From a virus (lineage: Duplodnaviria; Heunggongvirae; Uroviricota; Caudoviricetes), in IMG/VR virus record IMGVR_UViG_3300035208_005701: a DNA stretch of 64,000 bases; one strand, given 5' to 3'. Below, one piece after another: positions 2,268 through 62,534 of this stretch. The position numbers were made by a program, and so were the translations under genes. Position 1 is the first letter of the stretch. The number at the start of each line of letters is the position of its first letter. The notes below the pieces were generated by a model. That model ran no database searches. It was not told where the DNA came from and worked only from the letters and a program-made list of their open reading frames with translations.

Positions 2268-2276
2268 GGATAATAT

Positions 2277-13838: not shown

Positions 13839-13926
13839 AAGAAAATTAAATAATATAAATTTTTGCGACTTAACTACAGGAACTGGAAATTTTGTATTAG
13901 CAAATGGAAATGTTGTTATTCATAAT
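13816..13926 (+). mobile_element. Split-intein C-fragment (37 aa) at the start of the C-terminal topoisomerase polypeptide
   Basis: MKIRKINKRKLNNINFCDLTTGTGNFVLANGNVVIHN followed by S. The length and pattern match DnaE-type IntC sequences (...HNFALKNGFIASN). Confidence 0.65.
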
Positions 13927-32929: not shown

Positions 32930-33442
32930 ATGAAAATATATATGATAGAAAATAAAATACAAGATGAAATTTGGGAAATGAGAACTGATAACAATTGGTA
33001 TGTGAGATTAGAAGTTGTAAACAAATTAGAAGATCAAAACCGGATTTGGGAAATGAGAAATGATAAAAATTGGTATGTGAGAAGAGAAGTTGTAAGAAAA
33101 TTAGAAGATCAGAACCTAATTTGGGAAATGAGAAATGATGAAAGCTTATGCGTGAGAAGAGAAGTTATACTTAAATTAACTGATCAAAACCGGATTTGGG
33201 AAATGAGAAATGATAAAAATTGGTATGTGAGAAGAGAAGTTGTAAGCAAACTAAAAGATCAAAATCGAATTTTGGAAATGAGCAATGATCAAGATTATGA
33301 TGTGAGAAGAGAAGTTATACTTAAATTAACTGATCAAAACCGAATTTGGGAAATGAGAAATGATGAAAGTGAATATGTGAGAGTAGAAGTTGCAAAGAAA
33401 TTAGAAGGTGATTATAAATTAGCACATTTTTTATTAGAATAA
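32930..33442 (+). CDS. HEAT-like (PBS-lyase-type) repeat protein, six or seven near-identical 23-aa repeats
   Basis: Repeats IWEMRNDKNWYVRREVVRKLEDQNR / IWEMRNDESLCVRREVILKLTDQNR ... (D.N.YVR.EV..KL). Confidence 0.6.
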   Translation: MKIYMIENKIQDEIWEMRTDNNWYVRLEVVNKLEDQNRIWEMRNDKNWYVRREVVRKLEDQNLIWEMRNDESLCVRREVILKLTDQNRIWEMRNDKNWYVRREVVSKLKDQNRILEMSNDQDYDVRREVILKLTDQNRIWEMRNDESEYVRVEVAKKLEGDYKLAHFLLE

Positions 33443-35471: not shown

Positions 35472-35536
35472 ATTTTAAAATTGGTAAATTTGCAAAGATT
35501 CAATTCAAACAAATTTATTTTTAAAGGAATTTGTTA

Positions 35537-36670
35537 ATGAAAATTGGAAATTTCAATCTAGATATTAATCATATTTCTCAATTTAATGAATTATTGAAAT
35601 CTAAAGAAGAATTAAAATTAAAAAAGGAACTAATAGGAGATGTTGAATTTACTAGTATTTGTTATATGATTGCTCTTCCAAATACATTTGACTCTTTTTT
35701 AAGTAGAGAATGTAGAGGAAGTTTATTTGATTCTAGTGGAAAAATAATATCTCGACCATTTCATAAATTTTTTAATATAGGTGAAAAGGAATTTACTCAA
35801 CCTCATTTATTAAAAGAAATAATTGGATATAAAGAAAAAGTAGATGGGAGTTTAGCTGTTCCAGTACTAGTTAAAAATAAAATTATTTGGAAAACTAAAA
35901 AATCTTTCTATTCAGATGTTGCAAAATATATTAATAAATTTTATTATCCAGAAGATCCATTAGAAGATATTTATAATCCAGATAAAAAATGTAGCCCTAA
36001 TGATACTAAATTAGATTGGACTATTAGAGATTTAATTTCGGAAAATAAAACTCCATTATTTGAATATGTCTCAATCAATAATAGAGTCGTTATTAAGCAT
36101 TTTAAAGAAGAATTGATTTATCTAAATACTAGAGATAATGTTCATGGATATTATTCCAGTATGAGCCATTTTCTTGATGATAAGTTTAATTTAGAAGTTT
36201 TTATAAATGATACTATTAAAAAAGAAGAAATTGAAGGATATGTTTTATATGATGATAATGATTTTTATAAATTAAAGACTAAATGGTATGTAGATAGACA
36301 TAAAGCTATGGATATGATTTCAGTTAGAGATTTAATTGATATAATATTGCAAGATAAATTAGATGATATAATTTCAATCCTTAATAATCTCAATTGCATT
36401 GAAAGAATAAAAATATATCAAAAATATTCAGAGGAAGTATTAAAATATATGATATATTTCGAAACGTTAGCTAAAGAGAAATTATTATATTATGATACTT
36501 TTGATTTAAAAAAATATGCTTCAAATATACAAACAGAAAACCCACCTATGAAATCTTTATTATTTGCAATGAAAAGAAAAGATAATTATGAATTAACTTT
36601 GAAAAAAATTATTGGAAATTATTTTAAAGAAAAGTATAAAGGAAAAGTTATAAAATTCAACGATGAATAA
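35537..36670 (+). CDS. RNA ligase, T4 Rnl1 (RnlA)-like
   Basis: Nucleotidyltransferase motif I YKEKVDGSLAV (T4 RnlA KEDGSL); size 378 aa, close to RnlA. Confidence 0.65.
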   Translation: MKIGNFNLDINHISQFNELLKSKEELKLKKELIGDVEFTSICYMIALPNTFDSFLSRECRGSLFDSSGKIISRPFHKFFNIGEKEFTQPHLLKEIIGYKEKVDGSLAVPVLVKNKIIWKTKKSFYSDVAKYINKFYYPEDPLEDIYNPDKKCSPNDTKLDWTIRDLISENKTPLFEYVSINNRVVIKHFKEELIYLNTRDNVHGYYSSMSHFLDDKFNLEVFINDTIKKEEIEGYVLYDDNDFYKLKTKWYVDRHKAMDMISVRDLIDIILQDKLDDIISILNNLNCIERIKIYQKYSEEVLKYMIYFETLAKEKLLYYDTFDLKKYASNIQTENPPMKSLLFAMKRKDNYELTLKKIIGNYFKEKYKGKVIKFNDE

Positions 36671-36904
36671 AGGAGATATTATGATATATGATTGTGCTGT
36701 TATAATCAGATCAGTATCTTATTGTTATGTTAAAATTAAAGCTAAAAGTTAACAATTAGCTTTAAAAAAAAGCTGAAAAATTATTTAATGAAGGTGACTT
36801 GTATTTTGATAAACCAGATGATGAGAAGCCAGAGTTTTGTATAGTTGATTAATTGAATCTACAGATTTTTAAATTCAATGATGAAGATAAATAAGGAGAT
36901 TAAA

Positions 36905-37330
36905 ATGTCATTATTAATTGCAAAAAAACAAATTTTAAAATTTAATGTAGAGGACATAGATAAATTAACAAGAAAGCTGCCAGTTAAATATAAAAGTTAT
37001 AAAAACTGCTTATGTAAAAAATGTTTTAATTGTACTAGATGTGATCAATGTAATAGGTGCAATTTATGTTTTGATTGTATATTTTGCTCTAACTGTTCTG
37101 TTTGTGTTAATTGTTATGATTGTGAATTATGTTATAAATGTATTGATTGTCTCTTGTGCTGTAAGTGCACGAACTGCAAAGATTGCGAAAATTGTCATTC
37201 ATGTAATTATTGTATTAAATGTTCTAATTGTTTTGGATGTGTCGGATTAATCAATGCAGAATATATGATTTGTAATGTACAATTAACTAAAAAACAATAT
37301 ACAGAAAAAATTAATCGATTGTTTAATTAA
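36905..37330 (+). CDS. Cysteine-repeat protein: about 26 consecutive xxC triplets (CKKCFNCTRCDQCNRCNLCFDCIFCSNCSVCVNCYDCELCYKCIDCLLCCKCTNCKDCENCHSCNYCIKCSNCFGCVG)
   Basis: Read directly. Start moved to the ATG after AAGGAGATTAAA (MSLLIAKKQ...). The overlapping +frame ORF 37041..37250 is an artefact of the 3-codon periodicity. Confidence 0.55.
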   Translation: MSLLIAKKQILKFNVEDIDKLTRKLPVKYKSYKNCLCKKCFNCTRCDQCNRCNLCFDCIFCSNCSVCVNCYDCELCYKCIDCLLCCKCTNCKDCENCHSCNYCIKCSNCFGCVGLINAEYMICNVQLTKKQYTEKINRLFN

Positions 37331-37346
37331 TCAAATGAGGAGTATT

Positions 37347-38219
37347 ATGCCAAAAATAATTATTTGTAAAGGGCTTCCGGCATCAGGAAAATCTACTTGG
37401 GCAAGAGAACAATGCAAAAATGATTATAAAAGAATCAATAAAGATGACCTTAGAAAAATGTGTCATGATAATATTTATAATGGAAAAAAAGAAAAATTTA
37501 TTTTGGCGATGAGAAATATATTTATTTATGAATCATTGATGATGGGATATAATATCATTATAGATGATACTAATTTAAATCCTGCACATGAAGAAAGTAT
37601 AAGACAACTTGTGAAATCTTATTGTGATGACCAAAATTGCTCAGTTTCAATAGAAGTGAAATTTTTTGATACTCCATTAGAAGAATGTATAATAAGAGAT
37701 GATAAAAGACCTATCGGAGAAAAAGTTGGAGAAAAAGTTATTAGAGATATGTATAACAAGTATCTTAAGAAATCTGTTGAATATATTAAAGATACTAATT
37801 TAAAAAATTGTATAATAGTTGATATTGATGGGACATTAGCTATTCGAGCAGATAGAAACCAATATGATGAATCTAAAGTTTATTTGGATAATCTTAATAC
37901 AAATATTTCAGATATTGTTAATTCTTATAAGAAAAATAATCCAGATATTTATGTTATGATTTTTTCAGGAAGAAAAGATTCATGTAAAGAAATGACAATT
38001 AAATGGTTAAATAAATATCAAATAATGTTTGATGAAATTCATATGAGATCCGTAGATGATAATAGAAAAGATTCAATAGTTAAAAAAGAATTATTTGAAA
38101 CTTATATAAGAAATAAATATAATTGTTTGTTTGTTTTAGATGATCGTAATTCAGTAGTAAATATGTGGAGAAATGACTTGGGTCTTCAATGTTTACAAGT
38201 AGCAGAAGGAGATTTTTAA
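37347..38219 (+). CDS. pnk: Polynucleotide 5'-kinase/3'-phosphatase, T4 Pnk-like
   Basis: N-terminal [21 protein letters not shown] (T4 Pnk [21 protein letters not shown]). C-terminal HAD-like phosphatase IVDIDGTLA (DxDGT). Confidence 0.8.
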   Translation: [290 protein letters not shown]

Positions 38220-39230: not shown

Positions 39231-39917
39231 ATGAAAATTTCGATTTTCAATTTTAAAGTTAAATTGTTTCAACAATGCATCGGAACTTTCTCTGCTCGTG
39301 TTAGTTATGATGATTTTGATATAAATATTCATAACATCAGTTTATATATTTGGGGAGATGGAACTAAACAAATATTTTTTCCAAGTAATTATAAGAAAGA
39401 ATTTTTTATAGAATCTGAAGATATTATTAAATTTATAAAAGAGGAGCTGATTAATAATTTTTTAAATACATATTTGTATTTTAAAAATTCAATTCATAAA
39501 GAAAAGATAATATATATTATTGATATAAATTTAGAATCGATGCTTGTAGGAACATCAATTAATTTGTTTGAGTATGAATCTGAGATTAATGAAGAATTAG
39601 AAAAATTTAAAGCTGAATGTAATATAACCAATGAAGAGATTCATATATCTTATAGTAAAAATGGAAAAGATGAAGATTGTAGATTTGAAATATTGAATAC
39701 TATATTCAAATATATAGAAGATAAAAATCCTTCTCTTAGAGAAAATATTAAAATAAAATTGAAACATCTAAACAAAAATAAAGAAAAATTAAAATCAGAT
39801 GATTATAAATATCAAGATACAATGGGATATTGGCGAGATAAAGAAAGTCACGAATTGATTCATGAATTATTACCAGACAGAGTTAAAAATTATATAGCGG
39901 AGTCATATTTAAAATGA
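39231..39917 (+). CDS. Hypothetical protein (228 aa)
   Basis: ORF; ATGA junction to the next gene. Confidence 0.4.
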   Translation: MKISIFNFKVKLFQQCIGTFSARVSYDDFDINIHNISLYIWGDGTKQIFFPSNYKKEFFIESEDIIKFIKEELINNFLNTYLYFKNSIHKEKIIYIIDINLESMLVGTSINLFEYESEINEELEKFKAECNITNEEIHISYSKNGKDEDCRFEILNTIFKYIEDKNPSLRENIKIKLKHLNKNKEKLKSDDYKYQDTMGYWRDKESHELIHELLPDRVKNYIAESYLK

Positions 39918-40270
39918 AAATACGTAATGGATTTATTAGTAACAGTTCAAGTTCTAGTTTTATTCTTTCATCTAACAAATCAATTAATCCGAAGGTAATT
40001 ATAAATTTAAATAATTACATTACTGAGATTAAAAATGAAGAAGAACTTTATAGAGCATTTGTTTATGGCTACGAATTGTCTGAATGGAATAAAAAATTGT
40101 TTAAAAAGTATAAAATATGTCAAAAATTACTTCAAACAGGAAAAATAGTATATCTGGGAGTTGTGTCAGATGATTCAGATGATCCAATTTCTGAAATGTT
40201 ATCTAGAGGATTTCTTAAAAGTAAAACCAATGAATATGAAATAATTGAAGATGTAGAAAGGTTAACATGA
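39914..40270 (+). CDS. Member 1 of the 'MKxRNGFVSNSSSSSFI' N-terminal-motif paralog family
   Basis: MKIRNGFISNSSSSSFILSS.... C-terminal shared block KIVYLGVVSDDSDDPISEML..GF. Confidence 0.6.
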   Translation: MKIRNGFISNSSSSSFILSSNKSINPKVIINLNNYITEIKNEEELYRAFVYGYELSEWNKKLFKKYKICQKLLQTGKIVYLGVVSDDSDDPISEMLSRGFLKSKTNEYEIIEDVERLT

Positions 40271-40620
40271 AACATAGAAATGGTTTTGTAAGTAATTCAA
40301 GTTCAAGTTCATTTATTATTACAAATATGACAAATGAATCAAAAACAATTGTAGATTTTGCTGAAGAAAATATTAATTTAGTGCAACAGTATAATAACAT
40401 GTATGATGTTCCTTATAATCAAAAACAAATAATTAATGATGCAAAGAAAAGACTTGGACGAAATAGTAATGATGAATATAGATTTAAACCTCATGAATCT
40501 AAAAGATTAGTTTTTGGAGATTCAGATGGTGATGATATTGGACAGATATATGATTATATGTTGAGAGATAAAGGAAAATCTGAAAGTTTTAAGTGGAAAT
40601 TTGATGAGTATTTAAGATAA
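40267..40620 (+). CDS. Member 2 of the MKxRNGFVSNSSSSSFI family
   Basis: MKHRNGFVSNSSSSSFIITN.... C-terminal RLVFGDSDGDDIGQIYDYML. Confidence 0.6.
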   Translation: MKHRNGFVSNSSSSSFIITNMTNESKTIVDFAEENINLVQQYNNMYDVPYNQKQIINDAKKRLGRNSNDEYRFKPHESKRLVFGDSDGDDIGQIYDYMLRDKGKSESFKWKFDEYLR

Positions 40621-40634
40621 AAACGGAGTTTGTA

Positions 40635-40997
40635 GTGAAACAGAGAAATGGTTTTGTAAGTAATTCTAGTAGTTCTAGTTTCTGTATTAAGAAGACAGAT
40701 ATTGATCATGACGAGCTGAAAAGGTTTTTGGAGGTATATGCTGAATGTTATACATTAGTAAATGATGATCCTGAAGATTCTAAGGAACAGCAGGACACCA
40801 CAGAAGAATACTATCTCCTACGTACTGAAAGTTATACTGACACATATTTAGAAGATCATTTTAAACTTCTTGAGTTTTTGAATAAGCGAAAGATCAAAGA
40901 TTATGTTGATAAGGTTAGATACAGGGGAGATGGACGACCCGATAAGAAAGAAGAAAAACAGGCATTAAAACTAGGATATTTTCCAGATGAGGTATAA
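40635..40997 (+). CDS. Member 3 of the MKxRNGFVSNSSSSSF(C) family (GTG start)
   Basis: (M)KQRNGFVSNSSSSSFCIKK...; acidic middle region. Confidence 0.55.
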   Translation: MKQRNGFVSNSSSSSFCIKKTDIDHDELKRFLEVYAECYTLVNDDPEDSKEQQDTTEEYYLLRTESYTDTYLEDHFKLLEFLNKRKIKDYVDKVRYRGDGRPDKKEEKQALKLGYFPDEV

Positions 40998-41372
40998 ATG
41001 AAGAAAAGAGCTGGTTTCGTTTCAAATAGTTCAAGTAGTAGTTTTATTTTATCATCAGAAAAAACAAAACATTTAACAATAAAAATGGAATTGTCGTTAG
41101 ATGATCTTATTACTAAAATAATTAATACTCAAGATGAATTGATTGAATATATGTTTGATGAATATTGTTTAGATACTAAAAATCCAAATGATTGGGATGA
41201 AAGAACTAAAGAAAAATACAAAAAATTTAAATGGGAATCATCAAAAGGGAAAAAACTTATCATTGGAGATTGTTCAAATGAAGATGATAATTCATTATCA
41301 CAATTATTATATAACAAAGGATTTCCAATGTTAATGGGAGATAATTACGAAGTTGTACAAAATACTTTATAA
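40998..41372 (+). CDS. Member 4 of the family
   Basis: MKKRAGFVSNSSSSSFILSS.... C-terminal KLIIGDCSNEDDNSLSQLLYNKGF. Confidence 0.6.
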   Translation: MKKRAGFVSNSSSSSFILSSEKTKHLTIKMELSLDDLITKIINTQDELIEYMFDEYCLDTKNPNDWDERTKEKYKKFKWESSKGKKLIIGDCSNEDDNSLSQLLYNKGFPMLMGDNYEVVQNTL

Positions 41373-41382
41373 TGGAGAATTA

Positions 41383-41682
41383 ATGAAAAATCCAATATGT
41401 CCAGTTTGTGGATCAAAGATAATAATGTGCTTTGGTGCAATGGAAGCAGATACTCATTTTGAATTTATTAATGGTAAACCTGTTTTGATGAAAGTGACTG
41501 TTAACCCATATCAAAATCATGGTGATCTTGAAGAAATAAGATGTTCTAAAAATTATGAACATTTAACTGATGATAAATATATAAATATAAATGATAGAGT
41601 AAAAATGGAAGAAGAGATTTGTACACATATTCGACGATTATCAAAGACGAAATTAACTCTATCAAATAAAAAGGATAAATAA
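41383..41682 (+). CDS. Small zinc-ribbon protein (start at the internal ATG; the track start 41353 overlaps upstream)
   Basis: MKNPICPVCGSKIIMC ... CSKNYEH. Confidence 0.4.
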   Translation: MKNPICPVCGSKIIMCFGAMEADTHFEFINGKPVLMKVTVNPYQNHGDLEEIRCSKNYEHLTDDKYININDRVKMEEEICTHIRRLSKTKLTLSNKKDK

Positions 41683-42765
41683 ATGTACAAATTTAAAGAA
41701 AATAAAGAGTTCAAAATAGTTTCTTCTTCAGATTATAATTATGTATTTAATAAGTTAAATGGACAATTTGCAAGATGGGGAAAGACAAAAGAAGATGATC
41801 CGCAACAGGCTCCAGCTCCAGAGATACTTGATTTAGAAATAAGTTCTGGAGGAGATTGTTTAGGTATGTGTCCTTTCTGCTATAAAGGTAATGGTGGAAC
41901 GCAAGAAACTTTTAATATGACTTTCGAAGATTTTAAAATTATATTTGATAAAATGCCAAAGTTTTTAACTCAGATAGCTTTTGGTATTATGAATATTGGA
42001 ACTAATCCAGACTTTTTTAAAATGATGGAATACTCTAGAGAACATGGAGTTATTCCAAATTATACTTGTCATGGATTAGATGTTACTAAAGAATATGCTG
42101 AACGAACATCTAAATTATGTGGAGCTGTTGCTGTTAGTATAATTAATAAAGAAAAAACTTTTGAATCTATAAAAATGTTTGCTGATGAAGGAATGACTCA
42201 AGTAAATATTCATTATATGGTTTCAAAAGAACGATATGATGAAGCTTTTAAATTAATTGATGAAATAGCAAAAAGAAAGATTCCTGTCAATGCTGTTGTA
42301 TTTTTGCAGTACAAGTCTAAAGGAAGAGGTACTGATAAATTCTCTCCTGTTTGTAGTGTTGAAGATTATAAGAAATTAATTGAACATGCTACAAATGCAG
42401 ATGTAAGAATTGGTTTTGATTCTTGTTCTTGTCCATTGTGGTACAAAACTATAGAGGGAACAATAGAGGAAAAGAAGTCTGTAATGGGTGAACCTTGCGA
42501 AGCAGCATGTATGAGCTCTTATATTAATTGTAAAGGAGAATTCTACCCATGTTCTTTTACTGAAGGAACTACCGGATGGGAAAATGGGATAGATGTATTT
42601 TCTGCTACTGATTTTATTAAAGATATATGGAATCATCCAAGAGTAAAAGATTGGAGAATTAGATTATTGGGTACTACTAATAACTGTAATTGTAAGTTCA
42701 AAAAGATATGTAGAAAATGTCCTATATATGATATAACAGATTGTAAAAATATAAAGGATAAATAA
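41683..42765 (+). CDS. Radical SAM enzyme with a C-terminal SPASM-like Cys-rich domain
   Basis: CLGMCPFCY (Cx3Cx2C plus aromatic) after ...LEISSGGD. C-terminal auxiliary-cluster-like cysteines: DSCSCPLWY ... CEAACMSSYINCKGEFYPCSF ... NNCNCKFKKICRKCPIYD. Confidence 0.8.
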   Translation: MYKFKENKEFKIVSSSDYNYVFNKLNGQFARWGKTKEDDPQQAPAPEILDLEISSGGDCLGMCPFCYKGNGGTQETFNMTFEDFKIIFDKMPKFLTQIAFGIMNIGTNPDFFKMMEYSREHGVIPNYTCHGLDVTKEYAERTSKLCGAVAVSIINKEKTFESIKMFADEGMTQVNIHYMVSKERYDEAFKLIDEIAKRKIPVNAVVFLQYKSKGRGTDKFSPVCSVEDYKKLIEHATNADVRIGFDSCSCPLWYKTIEGTIEEKKSVMGEPCEAACMSSYINCKGEFYPCSFTEGTTGWENGIDVFSATDFIKDIWNHPRVKDWRIRLLGTTNNCNCKFKKICRKCPIYDITDCKNIKDK

Positions 42766-42766
42766 T

Positions 42767-43015
42767 ATGATGGAAATAAAAGTTCAAGCAGGACAATTAG
42801 GTATCAAAGGTTGTTACGGAGAAAAACTTTTTACGGTTTCTACTTTTGAAGATCTAATTAAAAAGATTAGACAAGAAAACAAGTTTAGAGCTAATATTGA
42901 GTTGACTTGTTATATACGTAATGAAAATCTTATTTTTCAATTTTGCAAGAAAAATAATGATGAGGTTTTATTTGAATTTAAAATTGTATCAGTAATACAT
43001 GAATCGAGGAAGTAA
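42767..43015 (+). CDS. Hypothetical small protein (82 aa)
   Basis: TAATATG junction; ORF only. Confidence 0.35.
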   Translation: MMEIKVQAGQLGIKGCYGEKLFTVSTFEDLIKKIRQENKFRANIELTCYIRNENLIFQFCKKNNDEVLFEFKIVSVIHESRK

Positions 43016-43047
43016 AAATACAAAATTGCTAAAAGGAGTTATGAAAA

Positions 43048-43437
43048 ATGTCAACTAGAAGTATAACAATTATTAAAGATGAAGAAGACAAAGAGATATG
43101 TGTATTATATAGGCACGGTGATGGTTATCCGAAAGGTCATGGACAGGATTTGGTAGATTTTTTAAAGGGAAAAAAGATAGTAAACGGAATTACTGCCTCT
43201 GATAGTTCAAATTTTAATGGGATGAATTGTTTAGCTGCTGCAATTATTGCACATTTTAAAACTGAAATAGGTGGATTTTATTTATTTCCAGCAGGAACTA
43301 GGGATAGGGGAGAAGGCTATATTTATACAATAAGTGGCAAGGTGAATGATAAATCTGCAACAATTACTGTTAGTAATTATAAAGGGGAAGATTTAGAAGT
43401 ATTATTAAGTCCCAAAGATGAAATTAATTTTATTTAG
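43048..43437 (+). CDS. Hypothetical protein (129 aa)
   Basis: ORF with AAAGGAG upstream. Confidence 0.4.
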   Translation: MSTRSITIIKDEEDKEICVLYRHGDGYPKGHGQDLVDFLKGKKIVNGITASDSSNFNGMNCLAAAIIAHFKTEIGGFYLFPAGTRDRGEGYIYTISGKVNDKSATITVSNYKGEDLEVLLSPKDEINFI

Positions 43438-43614
43438 AAACAAAGAAGTGTTAACTGTCCGTTTTCAAATATTGATACTAAAGTTAAAGAATGACTTGTT
43501 CGATATTTTGATCCAAAGAATTTTATGATGTCAATTGTTATAGTTTTGAAGAATTTAATAATTGGGCTAAATCCAATATCACGTTATTAAAAGAAGTTAT
43601 AAAATAGGAGCAAT

Positions 43615-43959
43615 ATGAAAACAAGAAATGGTTTTGTTAGTAATTCAAGTAGTAGTTCTTTTATAGTGGCTATTCCAAAGGATCATCCTACACAGTTTCA
43701 AAAAGAATTTACAATTGATACATATGAAGAAGTAACTGATGAAAAACAATTATTAGAACAATTAGAAAAAAGAGGATATTGCGAGAAAGATGATTTGTAT
43801 GAAGATTGTATTAAGCAATTAAAAAAAGGAAATAAAATAATTTTTGGGTGCAAAGGAGATCAAGATGATTCTGTTATTGATAGAGGTCTTTGTTACGGAG
43901 GGATGGAAGAGGTTCTTCCAGAAGGTGGAGCTGTAATTCAAGATTGTGATGGATATTAA
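43615..43959 (+). CDS. Member 5 of the MKxRNGFVSNSSSSSFI family
   Basis: MKTRNGFVSNSSSSSFIVAI.... C-terminal KIIFGCKGDQDDSVIDRGLCYGG. Confidence 0.6.
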   Translation: MKTRNGFVSNSSSSSFIVAIPKDHPTQFQKEFTIDTYEEVTDEKQLLEQLEKRGYCEKDDLYEDCIKQLKKGNKIIFGCKGDQDDSVIDRGLCYGGMEEVLPEGGAVIQDCDGY

Positions 43960-44380
43960 AATGAACGAACATGACAACATCGAATCAATAAAACCTACAG
44001 AATTAAAAACTCAAATTAATGTTGATAGTAAAATTTTAAGTGATAAATTTTTTGATAGTGAACTTTATGCAATAGATTGTATAATAAATGAGTCAGTTGA
44101 AAAAATGAAAGAAAGGATTAAATTTGAAAAAAAGATAAAAAAACAAACTACAAACTATAGAAAGAATATAAATCTGTTGTTTGATAAATATGATAAAATG
44201 GATAAAAAAGATTTTTTGAATGAAGAAAATAAAATAATTAAAAAATATAATAAAAGTATTGATCCAGAATATAAAAAATATAAATTTATTATAGATAAAA
44301 TAGAAAATAAATATAAAAAAATAATTGCTAATATTGATCTAAAACAAAAATACTTATTATCACAAAAGGCATTTGATTAA
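43946..44380 (+). CDS. Hypothetical Lys-rich protein (144 aa)
   Basis: About one quarter Lys; ATGA junctions on both sides. Confidence 0.4.
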   Translation: MMDIKMNEHDNIESIKPTELKTQINVDSKILSDKFFDSELYAIDCIINESVEKMKERIKFEKKIKKQTTNYRKNINLLFDKYDKMDKKDFLNEENKIIKKYNKSIDPEYKKYKFIIDKIENKYKKIIANIDLKQKYLLSQKAFD

Positions 44381-45651
44381 TGATTAAAGCATCAAGAGCT
44401 GATCAACTTGTTGAACATAAATGTTGGTATTGTAAACAAATAGTGAAATATAAACATTTCTTTCAAATAAGTAAGAAGTTAGGTTTAGTAAAATGTCCAT
44501 ATTGCTTAAAAGATTATACTATATCATATCCTATTTTAAAATTTGTTGATAGTAAATCAGCAAATGAAACGAGATTATGTAATGTTGGAACTTATAGACT
44601 TAAAGAAAATGATGAAATAAAAATAATAACCTCTCCTAGATATAATTATGTATACAACAAAAAAAATAATTCTTTTTCCAGATGGGGTGATACTCAAAAT
44701 ATAGATCTCATGTTTGCACTATCACCAGAAATAGTAGATTTAGAAATCAGTTCAAAACATGAACAATCTATTTCTAATATGACATTTTCTACTTTTAAAA
44801 TAATATTTGATAAAATACCAAAGTTTTTAACTCAAATAGTTTTTCATATTTCTGATACTACAACTAATCCAGATTTATTTAAAATGATGGAATATAGTAG
44901 AAAGTATGGAATTATGACAAATTGTATTTATTCTGGATCTGATATAATAGATGATCATATTTCAAAAATGATCAAATTATGCAGATCAATAGTTATTAAT
45001 TTAATAGATAAAGAAAAAACATTTCAATTGATAAATAAATTAATATTAAATAAGATGAAAAATATTTATATTAATTTTATATTATCTAAACAATCATTAG
45101 ATGAAGCTTTTAAATTAATAGATGAAATTAAAGAAAGAAAAATGCCTGTAAAGGCTATTATATTTTCTCAATACAAATCAAAAGAAATGGAGGTTGATAA
45201 ATTTGAACCAGTGACAAGTGTAGATATTTATAAGAAAATAATAGACTACTCTAGAACTAAACAAGTTAATATATTATTTGATTCTTGTTCATGTGCTCTG
45301 TGGTATAAAAGTATAGAGAAAACAGATCAAGAAAATCTAGCAAATTATGGAAATCAGTGTGAAAGTGGAATTTTCAATGGATTTATTAATTATAAAGGTG
45401 AATTTTTTCCATGTTCTTTTATAGAAGGAACTAATGATTGGGAAGAAGGATTAAATATATTATCTGCTGAAAATTTTATAAGTGATGTTTGGAATCATGA
45501 TAGAATTAAATCATGGAGAATTAATCTTTATTGCACTGTGCAAAATTGTTGTTGTAAATTTAAAAGAATGTGTAAAAAATGTCCAGTATATAATGTTATA
45601 CATTGTAAAGGACAATATTTTAACAAGTACGAATATCTGAAAGCTAAATAA
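44380..45651 (+). CDS. Degenerate paralog of the 41683 radical SAM/SPASM enzyme. It lacks the Cx3Cx2C SAM cluster, has gained an N-terminal 4-Cys zinc ribbon, and retains the C-terminal Cys motifs
   Basis: Aligned region EIVDLEISSKHEQSISNMTFSTFKIIFDKIPKFLTQIVF versus EILDLEISSGGDCLGMCPFCYKG...FNMTFEDFKIIFDKMPKFLTQIAF. N-terminal CWYCKQ...CPYC. C-terminal DSCSCALWY ... CESG...PCSF ... QNCCCKFKRMCKKCPVYN. Confidence 0.65.
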   Translation: MIKASRADQLVEHKCWYCKQIVKYKHFFQISKKLGLVKCPYCLKDYTISYPILKFVDSKSANETRLCNVGTYRLKENDEIKIITSPRYNYVYNKKNNSFSRWGDTQNIDLMFALSPEIVDLEISSKHEQSISNMTFSTFKIIFDKIPKFLTQIVFHISDTTTNPDLFKMMEYSRKYGIMTNCIYSGSDIIDDHISKMIKLCRSIVINLIDKEKTFQLINKLILNKMKNIYINFILSKQSLDEAFKLIDEIKERKMPVKAIIFSQYKSKEMEVDKFEPVTSVDIYKKIIDYSRTKQVNILFDSCSCALWYKSIEKTDQENLANYGNQCESGIFNGFINYKGEFFPCSFIEGTNDWEEGLNILSAENFISDVWNHDRIKSWRINLYCTVQNCCCKFKRMCKKCPVYNVIHCKGQYFNKYEYLKAK

Positions 45652-45709
45652 AATTTTAAGAAAATTAATAGAACATTTTAAAAATAAAAATAAATAAGGA
45701 GAAAAGAAA

Positions 45710-46009
45710 ATGAACGAACAGAATAACATCGAAACAACTCAGTCAGTAGAAACAACGCCAGTAAAATCAGAAATTGGAATTAGTGTAGTGATTCCTAGAT
45801 TAGAATGTAAAGGTTGTGATTTTATTGTAAAGAATGGAGAGAAGAAATATAATTGTATTAATCCAAAAAGAAAAGGTGGAAAATCTCCAATTTCAATGAA
45901 AGAATTATTGCTTGATAAATGGAATAAAGAAGGAAATTATACTTTGACTGATAAAGCTGAAGATATTGATACTTCAAAATTTAAAAAATGTCCATTGTTA
46001 AAAGCATAA
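45710..46009 (+). CDS. Hypothetical protein (99 aa)
   Basis: RBS aaggagaaaagaaaATG. Confidence 0.4.
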   Translation: MNEQNNIETTQSVETTPVKSEIGISVVIPRLECKGCDFIVKNGEKKYNCINPKRKGGKSPISMKELLLDKWNKEGNYTLTDKAEDIDTSKFKKCPLLKA

Positions 46010-46034
46010 TTGATATTAGTTTAATACATCAAAA

Positions 46035-46073
46035 TACAATGATTGCTTGTTATAACAATCATTGTATTTTTTA
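46035..46073 (+). terminator. Rho-independent terminator (tacaatgattg-cttgttataa-caatcattgta, then TTTTTT)
   Basis: Perfect 11-bp stem and a T6 run, read directly. Confidence 0.6.
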
Positions 46074-46108
46074 TAAGTTTAAAATGAATCAAGTCAAATT
46101 GAGGAGAC

Positions 46109-46342
46109 GTGATGAATCCTGAATATGTTGATTTTGATGATAAATCTTCTAATAATATTATTATCGGATTTACTGAGGATGAAACAGGAGATGAAATTTT
46201 AAAAATAAAATTATCTCTCAATGATGCCAAGAGATTAAAAGATATGTTAATTCATAGAACTAGTGAATTAGAAATTGCTAAAAGCGATGGAGATAAATAT
46301 TTTTGGTATGAAATTAATGAATACCAAAAACAATTTAAATAG
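46109..46342 (+). CDS. Hypothetical protein (77 aa)
   Basis: RBS gaggagacgtgATG. Confidence 0.4.
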   Translation: MMNPEYVDFDDKSSNNIIIGFTEDETGDEILKIKLSLNDAKRLKDMLIHRTSELEIAKSDGDKYFWYEINEYQKQFK

Positions 46343-46352
46343 GAGTATTTCG

Positions 46353-46559
46353 ATGAGTAATATTGTACCACTTGAACAAACAGATCCAGAACTTGGAGAA
46401 TTGTTAACTGAAGTAGTTAACATCAATAAAAATTATGCTAAAGGAAAAAGACCAATTATAGTAGATGGAAGTAATGTTTCTTATAAAGGACATTATATTT
46501 CAAATGATCCTTGTTATTGTGGTTCAGGAAAAAAATTTAAAAAATGTTGTATAGAGTGA
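46353..46559 (+). CDS. Small SEC-C-motif protein (start moved to the ATG after AGGAGT)
   Basis: C-terminal CYCGSGKKFKKCC matches the SEC-C zinc-binding motif C.CGSGKK.K.C(C/H). Confidence 0.45.
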   Translation: MSNIVPLEQTDPELGELLTEVVNINKNYAKGKRPIIVDGSNVSYKGHYISNDPCYCGSGKKFKKCCIE

Positions 46560-46772
46560 TTCAAAAATTTTTTGGAATAAATTATACAAGGAGAAACTAT
46601 GAAGAAACAACTATTAAATTTATTTGTGAAACATCATAGTCTACTTAGTATGATTCTTGGTGGAGGAATATTTCTACCTAGAATAATTCAGGAATAGAGT
46701 TGAAATTACTTGTTCCTGAAAGAAACCTTTTAGGAAGAAGCTAAAAGGAAGTTTAATTTTTTATATTATTAT

Positions 46773-46845
46773 CTGGGTGTGGGATAGTTGGTAATCTGTC
46801 CGGTCTGGAACCGGAAGATCAGAAATTCAAATCTTCTTACCCAGA
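46773..46845 (+). tRNA. tRNA-Pro (anticodon TGG), 73 nt, with C33 instead of U33 and a weak last T-stem pair
   Basis: Hand-folded. Acceptor ctgggtg / tacccag (C1:G72) with discriminator A73, both tRNA-Pro identity features. D-arm ggat-agttggta-atct. Anticodon arm tccgg-tcTGGaa-ccgga. T-arm agaaa-ttcaaat-cttct. Confidence 0.55.
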
Positions 46846-46945
46846 TATTTATTTTGCATCTATAGAGTAGTATTTGTGATTTCTCATCATAAGGTCTCGA
46901 TGCAATTTTGAGTAAACTCTTATTTAATTTAAAGGATATATTTAT

Positions 46946-47185
46946 ATGAGTGATATTTGTAAATGTAAATTATGTAAAAGATCCAGAAAAGTTAAAAGAT
47001 ATTTATATAAAATTTCAGATGAAAAAGTTAGAAAGTTTTTTCGTCAAATATATGAGTCATTAAATAATGTTGAATTCGATGTAGAGTGGCTAGCTGCAAG
47101 AAAAGAGACATTTGCAAAGTATCTTATGAATAAAAAATTATTATATGATTTTACAGTTTGGAAAATGGGAAATAAAGAATTTTAA
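46946..47185 (+). CDS. Hypothetical basic small protein (79 aa)
   Basis: ORF between the tRNA genes. Confidence 0.4.
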   Translation: MSDICKCKLCKRSRKVKRYLYKISDEKVRKFFRQIYESLNNVEFDVEWLAARKETFAKYLMNKKLLYDFTVWKMGNKEF

Positions 47186-47187
47186 TT

Positions 47188-47269
47188 GCCGAGTTGTCGG
47201 AATTGGTATACGAGCAGGTCTTAGAAATCTGTGGAGAAATCTATAAAAGTTCAAATCTTTTACTCGGCA
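47188..47269 (+). tRNA. tRNA-Leu (anticodon TAG), type II with a long variable arm, 82 nt
   Basis: Hand-folded. Perfect 7-bp acceptor gccgagt / actcggc, discriminator A. 3-bp D-stem tcg/cga with an 11-nt D-loop. Anticodon arm caggt-ctTAGaa-atctg. 13-nt variable region. T-arm aaaag-ttcaaat-ctttt. Confidence 0.75.
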
Positions 47270-47288
47270 CTTATAATAAGGAGTGAAC

Positions 47289-47513
47289 ATGATAATTTCA
47301 GCTGCGATGCTTATCAATTCTAAAATATATACTGGAAAACGTCATTATAACATAATAAAAGATAATCCTGGATTAACATTTAAAGATGGTATTCAGGGAT
47401 TTGTAGATGATAAAGATAAATTTTTAAATAGAAAACAAGCAGCTATAGAAGCTTTTAAGTGTGGTCAAATTTCAAAAAAAGTAACAGTTTTATTAAGTGA
47501 AGATTTGTATTAA
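47289..47513 (+). CDS. Hypothetical small protein (start at the ATG after AAGGAGTGAAC)
   Basis: ORF only. Confidence 0.4.
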   Translation: MIISAAMLINSKIYTGKRHYNIIKDNPGLTFKDGIQGFVDDKDKFLNRKQAAIEAFKCGQISKKVTVLLSEDLY

Positions 47514-47694
47514 GGATTCAATAATGTTAATTAAAGTTAAAAGATATGATACTACTTATTATTATCCAACTGAAACAAGATATATGATATATAATATTAA
47601 AAAGAGAAAATTAATTAAATCATCTGAAGAAACAAAATCTAAAAATAAAATAGATATTTACGCATAAAGTTAAATTTAATATTTAGGGGTAAAA

Positions 47695-48048
47695 ATGAAA
47701 ATTCGAACAGGATTTGTTAGTAGTTCTTCTTTTGTAATTTATGGAATTAGATTAACTAAAGATCAAATTAATTATTTGCTTAAAAAATATAAGGTTGATA
47801 CTGTAGATGAATTACCAAGAAAATTCGGAGATGTTGAATTGGTATATAGTTCAGATGATGCTCCCTCAGAAAAAATAAATTACTTTCTCGCAAATTGGAT
47901 ATCTCCCGAAATATATGGTATAGGTGAGTATGATTTAACTTGTAATGATATATTGAAAATTAAAGAATCAATTTATAAAATACTAGATGTAAGAATTGAA
48001 CCTAAATTAATTGTCAAATATAATGAAAGTAAGAAATGGATTCATTAG
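47695..48048 (+). CDS. Divergent member 6 of the family (MKIRTGFVSSSSFVIYG; shortened Ser run)
   Basis: N-terminus MKIRTGFVSSSSF. Confidence 0.5.
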   Translation: MKIRTGFVSSSSFVIYGIRLTKDQINYLLKKYKVDTVDELPRKFGDVELVYSSDDAPSEKINYFLANWISPEIYGIGEYDLTCNDILKIKESIYKILDVRIEPKLIVKYNESKKWIH

Positions 48049-48223
48049 TAACTCGAGTAGTTCTTCTTTTATAGTTTGTGTAAGATTTATATATGATAGT
48101 TTCAACAATTCCAATAAATTATTGATTGATAAAAAATCTATAAAAAACTTATTAATTATGGATTTCAGAAATGTAATTGGTCAAGTCCAATATCATTGTA
48201 TTTTAATGAAGATTTGTTATTAA
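48023..48223 (+). CDS. Member 7 of the family, apparently truncated (MKVRNGFISNSSSSSFIVCV..., about 66 aa). Possibly a pseudogene, with the continuation frameshifted into 48196..48426
   Basis: Canonical N-terminus, but the ORF ends early. The adjacent ORF is in a different frame. Confidence 0.4.
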   Translation: MKVRNGFISNSSSSSFIVCVRFIYDSFNNSNKLLIDKKSIKNLLIMDFRNVIGQVQYHCILMKICY

Positions 48224-48527
48224 TTAATTATAAAGAGGTAATTGATAATATTAATATTAAAACTTTAGGATATTGTATACAATGCAATCAAAATGATGTG
48301 ATAGAATTTTTGGTGGAAAATAAAATATCATTTAATTCAACTATTCATAATTTATCTGAAATTTTATTATATGATTCTGAAAAAAGATTTAATGTATTTT
48401 TATCAAAATTATGGATGTCAACATGAATTTGATATGATACTAAATAAAAATAATTTAATAGAGATAAAAGATAAATCCCCGTTAAAAGTATTAACAGGGA
48501 AATCTTGGTTGAAAAAATATAAGTAAT

Positions 48528-48625: not shown

Positions 48626-49432
48626 ATGAGTTTTGAAAGATATAATGATTTATTAGTATATGCAAATCTTTCAAAGATGATTTATTTTGATGAAATAAGA
48701 TTTAAAATAGAATTAATAAAATCGCATTTGAGTGTTTCTTTTTTATCATGGATAGAAAATAAAGAAACAAATACTCAATGTGCGTTTATTAAATATAACA
48801 ATAAATTGATTCTAGTATTTAGAGGAACTACTCCAATTTCATCAGATATAAAAGAATTTTTTAATGATATTGAAACTAATATAAATTTTAAATTAAAAAA
48901 TTCAAAATTTAAAAATGAAAATTATAAAGTTCATAGTGGTTTTTTAAAATGTTATTTATCTATAAAAGATCAAATTGTTCAATTTTTAGGATTAACAAAA
49001 GAACTAATAATAATAGGACATAGTCTTGGTGGAGCTCTTGGTCATGTTGCAGCTTTGAATTTAAAAAATGAAGAAAAACTTAATAACAATTTATTTATTA
49101 GATGTTATACTTTTGCTTCTCCTAAGGTTGGAGATGAGAATTTTGTAAAATTATCAGATAAAAATTATAGAAGTTTAAATGTAATAAATGTTCAAGATCC
49201 GATTCCATGTTTACCTCAAAATATTTTTGGATATTGTAATTTGGGTCATGAATTATTATTAGGAAAAAATAATTGCTATATAAAATCTTTGAAAGTTCAT
49301 GCGATAGTTAAATATATAGAACTTATAAATAACACTATAATTCAATCAAATTTGCATCGAAATTTAAAATATCAAAAATTTAGATTCAAAATATTATCTA
49401 AAATTAAATGTATTATTCGAAAAATTTTTTAA
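48626..49432 (+). CDS. Class 3 lipase (alpha/beta hydrolase)
   Basis: Nucleophile elbow IIGHSLGGALGHVAAL (GHSLGG) and YRVHSGF upstream. Confidence 0.65.
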   Translation: MSFERYNDLLVYANLSKMIYFDEIRFKIELIKSHLSVSFLSWIENKETNTQCAFIKYNNKLILVFRGTTPISSDIKEFFNDIETNINFKLKNSKFKNENYKVHSGFLKCYLSIKDQIVQFLGLTKELIIIGHSLGGALGHVAALNLKNEEKLNNNLFIRCYTFASPKVGDENFVKLSDKNYRSLNVINVQDPIPCLPQNIFGYCNLGHELLLGKNNCYIKSLKVHAIVKYIELINNTIIQSNLHRNLKYQKFRFKILSKIKCIIRKIF

Positions 49433-59770: not shown

Positions 59771-59798
59771 TTTACATTTTTAGATGGAAGGAGAATGC

Positions 59799-62534
59799 AT
59801 GAAATTGGAGTTTTTTAATATTGATAAATTTTGTGAAAAACTCGCCCCTATCACCTCTAATAAAATATATACTAGAAAGGGATTTCATCCTGACGGAATG
59901 TTTTCTGAGAAAATTTTTGGTCCGGTTAGAACTGGAACTTGTTCTTGTGGAATTTGGTGGGGAAGAGGAAGATTTGGAGAAACTTGCCCCCAATGTGGAG
60001 TTAAAATAACACATAGTAGCACTAGAAGAAAAATATTTGGAAAAATAGTTTTACCATTTAAAATTATTAATCCTATTATGTATTTTTTAATATCCAAAGT
60101 TGGAAAAATGACAATACATAAAATAATAGATGATATGATTGCTGATGATAAAATTAGTTACTATTATGATGAAAAGAAAAAGAAATATATCAAAGTAGTA
60201 GAATCCATTGAAGCAGGAGCCCCACCACCAGAATATCCAGAAGGAGTTAGAGTTTTTAATAGTCAACAAGGATTGCATGACTTGATTTTATCTGAAGCAG
60301 AGAAGAGGAAAGAAACAAATAGTGATTGGAATTTTATATATGAGAATTGGGATAAATTTTATATACAAAATATTATAGTTTTGCCTCCAGAATTTAGACC
60401 AGTCTCTAAATCTAAAGATGTTCAAATGAGAGATAAAATGAATGAGTTTTATCTACCCATTCTTAATTTTACATTGACTATGAATCAAGAAGATTTAGAT
60501 TCATCTATTCATTCTAAAATAAGTTCGGTCAATTTTAGAAATTTACATGAACATGTAATGAATTTGTATAATTATATATTTGATAAATTTTCCAAGAAAA
60601 CTGGATTGATTAGAGGATTTATTCTTGGAAAAAGAATAGATTTTTCAGGAAGAGCTGTAATTACTCCAGATCCTACTCTTAAATTAGATGAATGTTCTTT
60701 ACCATATACTTTAGCTTTGGAATTATATAAATTGGATGTTGCAGAAGTTCTTTTACAAAAAAGAATGCAGAAAAGATATGATCCAGCTATTAAGTATATT
60801 GATAAATGTATTGAACTTAATGATACTTGTTTAATAGATATTTTAAGACAAATTACAGCAGACAAAAGTTGTATGTTAAACAGGCAACCGACTCTTCATA
60901 GATTAGGTATTTTAACTTTCAAAATAAAAATTAATACTGATTATGTTATTAAGATTCATCCATTAGTTTGTGAACCATATAATGCAGATTTTGATGGTGA
61001 TCAGATGGCTGTATATATTAGTTTATATGAAAAGACTCAGAAAGAATCTGTAGATAGATTAGGGATTTTATCTAATCTTATTTCTCCATCTACTGGTAAC
61101 TTTTCTTTAGGAGTGAATCAAGATATTGTTTTAGGTCTTTATTATCTTACTAAAGAAGGAGAAACACCAGAAGTTATATTAGAAGATGGAACTAAAACGA
61201 CACAAGGAAGAGTGGAATTTAATAAGATTTTCCCTACTAATTTTCCATTCATGAATTGTACTATTACAAAAACTACTATTAGAGCTTTATTAAATGTATT
61301 AGTTAAAAATTATGATAGTACTATAGTAAAAGATATATTAGATAATATAAAGGATTTAGGATTTAAAGAAACTACTCTTAGAGGTTGCACAATGTCTTTG
61401 GAAAATATAGAATTTCCAGAAGCAAGAGAGATAGTTACTAAGATATGTGATGATGAAAAAACATCTATTAATGAAAAATTCTTTTTATTACAAACTCCAG
61501 ATATTAAGAAAAAGATAAAACAATCATTTCCATATTCTGATTATATAGAATCTGGTTCTAGAGGTTCTTGGGATCAAGCGAAACAGTTAACTTTTTGTAG
61601 AGGATTTATTTCTAATTCAAAAGGTGAAATCATTCCAACTCCTATTAAAAGTAGTTTGTTAGATGGTTTGAATGAAGAAGAATTTTTTATATCCTGTTAT
61701 GGATCTAGAAAAGCTTTGCTTGATGTCGCTTTAAATACTGGAGTATCTGGTTATCTTACAAGAAAACTAGTATACTGCGCAGTAAATTCTGAACTTGGTG
61801 AAGAAGATGATTGCGGAACAACTGATACTTTAAATTTATCTATTCCTAAAAATTCAGATGAAATTGATTCTGAAAAATTGATGAGAAGTTTAATAGGAAG
61901 ATGGGTAAACAATAAAGGTCAATTGGAATTAATAACTGATGATAATTATAGAACTTATATTGGAAAAGATGTAGAAGTAAGATCTCCTATATTTTGTAAG
62001 CATAATAAAATATGTAAAAAATGTTACGGGGATACATACAAATATCTTCATTCTAATTATATTGGAATATTGTCAGCTTCAGCATTAGGGGAAGTTGCTA
62101 CTCAGTTAACGTTGAGAACTTTTCATATTGGTGGTATTGCTCAAATGTCAAAAACTCAAACAGATACTAGTCAAAAAGATATTATTAATGATTTAAGTTT
62201 GGTAAAGAAAATGTTACATGGTCATGCAAAATTACCATTCGATCAATTAATAATGGAATTATTTAAAGTATATGTTAATCATAAAACTTTATTATTAGTG
62301 CATTTTGAAATTATAGTTTCTCAGATGATGAGGAAAAATGGTAAAAGATGGAGAACTCAAGATGATAGAAGTATGGAAGATTATGAACTTATTTCTATAG
62401 AAAATGTTCCGTCTAAAGAATCGTTCTTATTAGCTTTAGCATTTTCTAAACCATACAGTTATATAGTTAATGGAATTTTGGAATCCACTACTACAGATGG
62501 AATTCTTGAACGAATTATGACAAATGAAATATAA
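59799..62534 (+). CDS. Multisubunit RNA polymerase beta'-like subunit, set 2 (start at the ATG after GGAAGGAG)
   Basis: Zn-binding CSCGIWWGRGRFGETCPQCG, catalytic NADFDGDQMAV, bridge-helix SGYLTRKLVY, trigger-loop TQLTLRTFHIGG. Confidence 0.85.
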   Translation: MKLEFFNIDKFCEKLAPITSNKIYTRKGFHPDGMFSEKIFGPVRTGTCSCGIWWGRGRFGETCPQCGVKITHSSTRRKIFGKIVLPFKIINPIMYFLISKVGKMTIHKIIDDMIADDKISYYYDEKKKKYIKVVESIEAGAPPPEYPEGVRVFNSQQGLHDLILSEAEKRKETNSDWNFIYENWDKFYIQNIIVLPPEFRPVSKSKDVQMRDKMNEFYLPILNFTLTMNQEDLDSSIHSKISSVNFRNLHEHVMNLYNYIFDKFSKKTGLIRGFILGKRIDFSGRAVITPDPTLKLDECSLPYTLALELYKLDVAEVLLQKRMQKRYDPAIKYIDKCIELNDTCLIDILRQITADKSCMLNRQPTLHRLGILTFKIKINTDYVIKIHPLVCEPYNADFDGDQMAVYISLYEKTQKESVDRLGILSNLISPSTGNFSLGVNQDIVLGLYYLTKEGETPEVILEDGTKTTQGRVEFNKIFPTNFPFMNCTITKTTIRALLNVLVKNYDSTIVKDILDNIKDLGFKETTLRGCTMSLENIEFPEAREIVTKICDDEKTSINEKFFLLQTPDIKKKIKQSFPYSDYIESGSRGSWDQAKQLTFCRGFISNSKGEIIPTPIKSSLLDGLNEEEFFISCYGSRKALLDVALNTGVSGYLTRKLVYCAVNSELGEEDDCGTTDTLNLSIPKNSDEIDSEKLMRSLIGRWVNNKGQLELITDDNYRTYIGKDVEVRSPIFCKHNKICKKCYGDTYKYLHSNYIGILSASALGEVATQLTLRTFHIGGIAQMSKTQTDTSQKDIINDLSLVKKMLHGHAKLPFDQLIMELFKVYVNHKTLLLVHFEIIVSQMMRKNGKRWRTQDDRSMEDYELISIENVPSKESFLLALAFSKPYSYIVNGILESTTTDGILERIMTNEI

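Follow-up and report, generated by a model that had tools for sequence, protein, structure and literature searches.

A Short N-Terminal Tag on Phage Proteins and Its Genomic Link to a Radical SAM/SPASM Enzyme: A Candidate Protein-Modification Module

Introduction

Why would a phage encode a set of small proteins that begin alike and then diverge, and carry their genes around a gene for a radical S-adenosylmethionine (SAM) enzyme? The question is raised by the IMG/VR virus record IMGVR_UViG_3300035208_005701 (Caudoviricetes). Here, "the window" denotes the whole stretch of this viral DNA that was analyzed, 64,000 nucleotides (nt) in length. The original prediction, made from the sequence letters, described a seven-member protein family with a common N-terminus, interleaved with radical SAM/SPASM genes. 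Much new chemistry has come from peptide-acting radical SAM/SPASM enzymes. To our knowledge, nearly all known members belong to sulfatase maturation or to bacterial pathways for peptides that are made on ribosomes and modified after translation (RiPPs). We report that the common N-terminus, which we call the tag, occurs on a large family of otherwise dissimilar phage proteins, and that tag genes are linked in phage genomes to genes of one radical SAM/SPASM family. Gene context, the structural class of the enzyme, and covariation lead us to judge it reasonably probable that the enzyme recognizes the N-terminal tag of many client proteins and modifies it by radical chemistry.

The Tag and the Genes That Carry It

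Seven plus-strand open reading frames (ORFs) in the window open with M/V-K-x-R-x-G-F-[VI]-S (Table 1), as the original prediction held. No further copies turned up in the 64 kb when all six frames were scanned for the motif and when a hidden Markov model (HMM) of the family was run. Five of the seven genes are intact. The full NSSSSSF run, ascribed to every copy in the original prediction, is present in six; the degenerate member at 47695 reads GFVSSSSF, with N10 and the Ser run shortened. The copy at 48023 is interrupted. Specifically, its ORF specifies 66 amino acids (aa) and ends at a stop caused by a frameshift, and its homologs in other phages are 135–205 aa long. In tblastn searches with those homologs, residues 1–50 align in one frame and residues ~43–136 in the adjacent frame, out to ~48400, with the frame change near 48150–48180. 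Judged by its reading frames, this copy is a pseudogene or an assembly error.

The Ser run is specified by AGT/AGC codons in one window copy and by TCA/TCT/TCG codons in another, and the first 51 nt of the copies share a mean pairwise identity of 65% (range 51–82%). Thus, as had been suggested, selection acts on the tag peptide and not on the DNA. Behind the tag, the window copies fall into at least three body types. The body of tag-family protein 2 is 36–47% identical to cluster 13 members of other phages, and no relatives of the tag-family protein 3 body were detected.

Table 1. Tag-family genes and radical SAM/SPASM genes of the window
Feature	Coordinates	Strand	Length	Description
Tag-family protein 1	39914..40270	+	118 aa	Begins MKIRNGFISNSSSSSF; family HMM E 6e-34; body matches cluster 4
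Tag-family protein 2	40267..40620	+	117 aa	Begins MKHRNGFVSNSSSSSF; family HMM E 9e-19; body type differs, cluster 13
Tag-family protein 3	40635..40997	+	120 aa	GTG start; begins (M)KQRNGFVSNSSSSSF; family HMM E 6e-16
Tag-family protein 4	40998..41372	+	124 aa	Begins MKKRAGFVSNSSSSSF; family HMM E 6e-41; body cluster 4
Radical SAM/SPASM enzyme, proposed tag modifier	41683..42765	+	360 aa	C59-x3-C63-x2-C66; Cys-rich SPASM-like C-terminal domain
Tag-family protein 5	43615..43959	+	114 aa	Begins MKTRNGFVSNSSSSSF; family HMM E 5e-30; body cluster 4; member modeled with AlphaFold2
Degenerate radical SAM/SPASM paralog	44380..45651	+	423 aa	Pairwise alignment; phrog_7293 E 3e-51
Degenerate tag-family member	47695..48048	+	117 aa	Begins MKIRTGFVSSSSF; weak family HMM match, E 3e-5
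Frameshifted tag-family member	48023..48426	+		Begins MKVRNGFISNSSSSSF; tblastn of homologs from other phages

The tag family extends far beyond the window. A word-indexed protein search with one tag protein gave 2 matches, and an exhaustive profile search was needed to reveal the family. Across 1.84 billion representative proteins, that search returned 7,696 clusters with E ≤ 1e-3, of which 545 also passed E ≤ 1e-10, and nearly all matches begin at residue 1. A logo built from 390 family ORFs, taken from retrieved loci, defines the tag as 18 residues at the N-terminus: M-K-[ITLV]-R-x-[G/D]-F-[V/I]-[S/T]-N-S-S-S-[S/T/A]-S-[F/Y]-[I/V]-[I/V]. K2, F7, N10, S11, and S12 are invariant or essentially so, and G6 is replaced by Asp in 16% of tags. 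The same 390 proteins range in length from 35 to 309 aa, with a median of 135. Clustering of the bodies behind the tag in 525 unique members produced 130 BLAST clusters (89 singletons), and hhalign comparison of the ten largest clusters gave probabilities of <10% for all pairs except two. The bodies are largely without mutual homology; the tag is the shared functional element. The weak C-terminal block noted in the original prediction (G..G..S/D-acidic) is real in the subfamily holding the 39914, 40998, and 43615 products. In the alignment of this subfamily (101 sequences), G72, G78, and G96 are nearly invariant.

No annotated signal or family in Pfam, NCBIfam, or the PDB matches the tag, which agrees with the original view of the motif. 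Pfam and NCBIfam contain no match for the window copies, the 101 subfamily members, or 138 diverse representatives, and PDB sequence searches with tag proteins likewise yielded no match. In PHROGs, tag N-termini weakly match the start of phrog_7397, a family of unknown function. Among 185,579 species genomes, the tag pattern appears in 48 stretches only, and all confirmed ones lie on contigs of metagenome-assembled genomes; IMG/VR contains more than 600 such stretches. Thus, the tag family is, in practice, a phage family, with members on contigs of T4-like and jumbo phages and on far smaller phage contigs. A megablast search of 50,697 phage records with the DNA of the region returned no match, and neither did a tblastn search of phages with one tag protein. 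We attribute the tblastn result to the low-complexity filter and to divergence of the bodies; a local HMM search of phage RB16 found two members.

A structural model clarifies how the tag relates to the body behind it. AlphaFold2 (AF2), run on the 43615 product with the 101-sequence alignment, predicts a small alpha/beta body with confidence (predicted local distance difference test [pLDDT] 80–95). Residues 1–20, containing the tag, have a pLDDT of 48–65, possess no secondary structure, and do not pack into the fold. The model has no significant structural neighbor in the PDB or BFVD. Because AF2 leaves residues 1–20 without structure beside a confident body, the shared element is best modeled as an exposed N-terminal tag on heterogeneous bodies.

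A Divergent Radical SAM/SPASM Enzyme

The product of the gene at 41683 matches phrog_7293, a family of unknown function, end to end (E 9e-90), and has about 2000 homologs at 50–60% identity. Cysteines C59, C63, and C66 of its CxxxCxxC motif are kept in >90% of 121 homologs. Against Pfam Radical_SAM (PF04055) the protein scores 20.4 bits, below the cut-off of 29.5, and against Pfam SPASM (PF13186) it scores 21.1 bits, below the cut-off of 21.5; many of its homologs carry a precomputed PF04055 match. In the structural model (pLDDT 95), a partial TIM-barrel radical SAM core precedes a Cys-rich auxiliary-cluster domain, the arrangement known from solved structures of SPASM enzymes. The CxxxCxxC motif, the Cys-rich C-terminus, and the modeled fold identify the protein, as first proposed, as a radical SAM/SPASM enzyme, and a divergent one.

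The structures closest to the enzyme model are SuiB (24.1), SkfB (22.1), anSME (20.3), and CteB (19.7), followed by BlsE, ChlB, TigE, viperin, EpeE, and PqqE at 18.5–19.6. Among these best matches, SuiB, SkfB, anSME, CteB, ChlB, TigE, EpeE, and PqqE count as peptide or protein modifiers. Four short beta-strands (residues 3–32) precede the core, and in this part of the protein Y18, R31, and G33 are invariant and W32 is nearly so. The enzyme has no Pfam PqqD match. This N-terminal beta-sheet is possibly the platform on which an extended tag is received.

The window also encodes a paralog, at 44380, 50% identical to the enzyme. A 15-residue deletion takes out exactly the CxxxCxxC loop. The SPASM cysteines are retained, an N-terminal CxxC...CxxC segment has been added, and other conserved core positions are changed. 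The closest database relative of this protein is the window's own enzyme (50%), and no other paralogs resembling it were found in the databases. By sequence comparison, the 44380 gene is a lineage-specific duplicate of the enzyme gene. Thus, the original description of it as a degenerate paralog stands, and its inclusion as a component of the system does not: its nearest relative is the 41683 product, and similar paralogs do not occur elsewhere.

Tag Genes and the Enzyme Gene Are Linked

The original prediction staked itself on co-occurrence of the tag family with radical SAM genes in related genomes. Linkage was assessed within 10 kb in two sets of loci, 98 seeded by tag genes and 80 seeded by enzyme genes and fetched out of 551 confirmed IMG/VR stretches, 175 loci in all. 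The link held in both directions. From the tag side, an enzyme homolog lies within 10 kb in 64 of the 98 loci, always on the same strand, with a median tag–enzyme gap of 912 nt and many gaps of <50 nt. From the enzyme side, one or more tag genes lie within 10 kb in 64 of the 80 loci, and almost all of them share the strand of the enzyme. Those tag genes usually reside directly downstream of the enzyme gene, in arrays of up to 12; over all loci, the largest tag arrays have 14 copies. On one 732-kb contig, the enzyme gene is followed by at least nine tag genes. Both partners are present in 110 of the 175 loci, and several tag-only loci share a contig with an enzyme gene located farther off than 10 kb (for example, the locus pairs L013/L118, L025/L052, and L068/L018). 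As a rough estimate from 551 loci in 2.9 million viral contigs, chance would place the enzyme in well below one per hundred 20-kb windows.

Clustering of all ORFs in the loci returned the tag family and the enzyme as the only conserved families. No protease, no transporter or exporter, and no separate RiPP recognition element (RRE) protein is conserved across the loci by this clustering. Two small zinc-ribbon proteins had been placed in the system by the original prediction. That assignment falls: the zinc-ribbon ORF at 41353–41682 has no counterpart in any related locus, nor do the ORFs at 42767, 43048, and 43946, and we reject all of these, zinc-ribbon ORFs included, as parts of the module.

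The association spans enzymes that are 28–58% identical to that of the window, and the tag varies with them. Where the enzyme is <38% identical to the window enzyme, T9 is found in 110 of 130 tags, often together with D6; otherwise, the tags have S9 and G6. That tag variants track the enzyme clade fits co-evolution of the two partners.

One sampled group of phages illustrates the distant end of this range. Contigs of 85–160 kb from IMG/VR sample 3300045988 (L012, L016–L026, L039–L046, and similar loci) derive from near-identical phages with a distant enzyme (~30% identity). Three tag genes lie at a fixed distance of ~3.4 kb downstream of the enzyme gene, a second tag cluster is located >20 kb away, and the tags possess T9 instead of S9.

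Cultured phages also carry both partners. The enzyme is encoded in 173 of the 50,697 phage records, nearly all of them T4-like Pseudotevenvirus or Slopekvirus, among them RB16, RB43, KP15, KP27, CfP1, and GuL6. These carriers include culturable Escherichia coli and Klebsiella phages. In their records, the enzyme is annotated at most as a "putative radical SAM protein." An HMM search of the whole RB16 genome revealed two tag proteins, RB16p106 and RB16p111, both beginning MKIRSGFVSNSSSSSFI; their orthologs are found in 174 and 175 phage records, respectively, in the same genera as the enzyme. Co-occurrence in cultured phages agrees with the link, yet it amounts to a single clade. In the RB16 record (66610–71000; L083 17611–22001), RB16p106 and RB16p111 flank RB16p109, a 739-aa protein with an annotated N-terminal VWFA domain. 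One RB16p111-like sequence has the UniRef label "YubB ferredoxin-like domain-containing protein," a label that a Pfam scan did not reproduce.

A Proposed Tag-Modification Module

We propose that the enzyme encoded at 41683–42765 and its tagged clients could constitute a two-component, phage-specific protein-modification module. The enzyme would recognize the tag at a free N-terminus, with the consensus M-K-x-R-x-[G/D]-F-[V/I]-[S/T]-N-S-S-S-x-S-[F/Y]-h-h. Its clients in the window would be tag-family proteins 1 through 5 and, in addition, the decayed copies at 47695 and 48023. The notion is that the tag is the substrate, and that it probably docks on the enzyme as an extended strand, possibly on the N-terminal beta-sheet. 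The radical-initiated modification would fall within the invariant F7...N10-S11-S12...F16 segment. One candidate chemistry is an intramolecular cross-link, either a SuiB-like one between Lys2 and Phe7 or a cyclophane of the aromatic-to-C-beta type on F-V-S/T. A second candidate is C-beta oxidation of an invariant Ser, as in anSME. Thioether chemistry is excluded because the tag contains no conserved Cys.

The clients may be accessory proteins for host takeover or anti-defense. Such roles are suggested because the clients sit among early-type accessory genes, form arrays, and diversify fast. In the window, the nearby accessory genes specify an Rnl1 RNA ligase, a polynucleotide kinase/phosphatase (PNKP), an HNH endonuclease, tRNAs, and a lipase.

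Comparison With Known Systems

Several features of the loci recall RiPP pathways: candidate precursor genes co-localize with the enzyme gene, lie on the same strand, and form multicopy arrays. The differences are as pronounced. RiPP precursors are short leader–core peptides, whereas the phage clients have confidently folded bodies, and no leader peptidase, exporter, or RRE is conserved with them. Of the original proposal of a RiPP-type or protein-modification substrate–maturase system, the architecture of a conserved N-terminus on variable bodies beside a radical SAM/SPASM gene is confirmed, which makes a candidate substrate–maturase pair the best reading. A classical RiPP system is rejected: the clients are folded (80–300 aa), the conserved residues are 1–18, and no protease, exporter, or recognizable RRE protein is conserved nearby. 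The same contrast emerges with individual maturases. Relative to the peptide cyclases SuiB and StrB, which install the Lys–Trp cross-link of streptide, the phage enzyme is 17% identical and has no evident full RRE domain. SuiB and StrB act on short leader–core peptides; the phage system presents folded clients with a conserved element at residue 1, lacks an exporter and a protease, and is restricted to phages. SkfB, CteB, Tte1186, and the three-residue cyclophane enzymes likewise act on peptides, whereas the phage clients are proteins, and, unlike in sactipeptide and ranthipeptide systems, no RRE, protease, or transporter is conserved near the phage enzyme.

Operationally, the phage system is closest to anSME, a case in which one SPASM enzyme serves several folded clients by way of a short motif. 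The likeness ends at the motif. The tag does not contain the anSME/AtsB target (C/S)-x-(P/A)-x-R; in the logo, no Ser has a Pro, Ala, or Arg behind it at the spacing of that motif. No NCBIfam anSME model matched the phage enzyme, and the phage clients belong neither to the sulfatases nor to any known fold. We thus reject an anSME-type target in the tag, to which the original prediction had likened the Ser run. Also rejected is a glycyl-radical protein with its PflA-type activase, in which R-x-G-F would stand for the R-V-x-G-[FWY] fingerprint with its invariant Gly, given that G6 is Asp in 16% of tags.

In PHROGs, phrog_7293 (enzyme) and phrog_7397 (tag) are both listed as "unknown function," and the database neither connects the two nor describes the tag. 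In the literature library searched, nothing relevant was found on the motif, the enzyme–client pairing, radical SAM proteins of phages, RiPPs of phages, or SPASM enzymes of jumbo phages, and the paper on KP15 and KP27 does not mention the enzyme. Compared with known radical SAM/SPASM maturases, the phage system is unusual in its residue-1 tag, its folded and unrelated clients, its restriction to phages, and its very large client arrays.

Weighing Other Explanations

The alternative that survives best, though we consider it unlikely, is that the tag proteins are partners of the enzyme and not its substrates. As adaptors, specificity subunits, or scaffolds, they would each dock by a common strand and steer the enzyme to a different target, for instance a nucleic acid, a small molecule, or a protein of the host. 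Co-occurrence supports this explanation just as it does tag modification. A constant docking element on diversified bodies resembles exchangeable specificity subunits, and the conserved N-terminal beta-sheet of the enzyme (Y18, R31, W32, and G33) could accept a strand. However, the invariant polar N-S-S together with invariant K2 and F7 suggest a site of reaction rather than a strand for docking, the close structural relatives of the enzyme all act directly on a bound peptide, and no third component is conserved across the loci.

We give less credence to the idea, already offered in the original prediction with regard to capsids, that the tag serves as a signal for targeting or processing, be it for capsid targeting of packaged and injected proteins, for degradation, or for localization, and that the radical SAM gene is merely a neighbor in an accessory region. 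Strict N-terminal placement on heterogeneous, cargo-like bodies is indeed what T4 capsid-targeting sequences display. Moreover, jumbo phages with a split multisubunit RNA polymerase are known to package many proteins, and the window derives from a phage of this kind. Nonetheless, a targeting signal leaves unexplained the reciprocal, co-directional, and often adjacent link to a single enzyme family at 28–58% identity, and it leaves unexplained the tracking of enzyme clade by tag variants. The tag contains no Glu, so the L/I-x-E site cleaved by T4-type prohead proteases is absent, and the tag family is not confined to jumbo phages but is present also in T4-like and in far smaller phage contigs. 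No positive support for capsid targeting was found, and it would not explain the enzyme link.

Comparably improbable, in our estimation, is that the tag, as a beta-strand followed by a Ser-rich loop, forms the opening element, structural or catalytic, of a small enzyme fold that highly diverged homologs have in common, with the radical SAM enzyme acting in the same pathway and not on them: the whole 120 aa aligns within the subfamily, a second conserved block contains glycines and acidic residues, and invariance of N-S-S could mark an active-site or phosphate-binding loop, but AF2 leaves residues 1–20 unpacked, the bodies of different clusters have no homology detectable by hhalign, body lengths range over 35–309 aa, and no enzyme in Pfam, PDB, or BFVD matches in fold or sequence.

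Each of these three explanations accounts for less of the data than does modification of the tag by the enzyme. Several observations weigh against tag modification nonetheless. Co-occurrence and the covariation of tag and enzyme are partly confounded by shared ancestry. A partner within 10 kb is not universal (64/98 tag loci and 64/80 enzyme loci), and in RB16 the enzyme, RB16p156, has no adjoining tag gene; the tag genes lie ~20 kb away, such that coupling at the level of the operon is not universal either. The tag lacks every known radical SAM recognition motif that was checked, and its low pLDDT also fits packing on another partner, for example in an oligomer, rather than service as an enzyme substrate. 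Finally, the enzyme scores below the curated cut-offs of Pfam and NCBIfam, and its assignment to the peptide-modifying subclass rests on similarity of fold.

Other Features of the Window

Several ORFs at 75–6634 and 59784–62534 match PHROG families of split multisubunit RNA polymerase beta/beta' subunits, which places the source of the window among the phiKZ-like jumbo phages; its GC content is 25%. Topoisomerase II is encoded as two ORFs, at 10058–12316 and 14277–15584 (10058–15584 overall), between which lie a 516-aa ORF matching homing-endonuclease PHROGs (12288–13838) and a 154-aa ORF (13816–14280). ARAGORN identifies a tmRNA at 20912–21272 with the tag peptide ENSIDFSPLSLAA. A 170-aa protein at 32930–33442 is built of five near-identical "IWEMRNDxNWYVRREVVxKL" units and matches HEAT repeats.

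Just upstream of the tag array resides an RNA-repair pair, consisting of a T4 Rnl1-type RNA ligase (35531–36670) and a polynucleotide kinase/phosphatase (37335–38219); between the two, at 36878–37330, is a 150-aa protein composed almost entirely of CxxC repeats. The region occupied by tag genes also includes three tRNA genes: tRNA-Pro (46772), tRNA-Leu (47188), and tRNA-His (48528). Directly after tRNA-His, 48626–49432 encodes a lipase of class 3, which matches Pfam Lipase_3 (E 6e-24) and has a GHSLGG motif.

Implications

Here, we have focused on a short N-terminal tag, the phage proteins that carry it, and the enzyme family to which it is linked. In its broadest form, the proposal is of a widespread, phage-exclusive "tag and modify" system, in which a dedicated radical SAM/SPASM enzyme would place an undescribed radical modification, a cross-link or an oxidized Ser, on the tag of dozens of unrelated effectors per genome, possibly for host takeover or anti-defense. 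We regard the chances of this broad form being correct as evenly balanced. The scale is considerable, with 7,696 representative clusters in the tag family and at least 551 enzyme loci in IMG/VR, and both partners occur in RB16, RB43, KP15, and KP27, phages that are culturable and genetically tractable. If the proposal is true, a short, portable, enzyme-recognized N-terminal tag could serve as a handle for protein engineering. For the phages themselves, it would mean a new post-translational modification and a new route by which they mature sets of accessory proteins.

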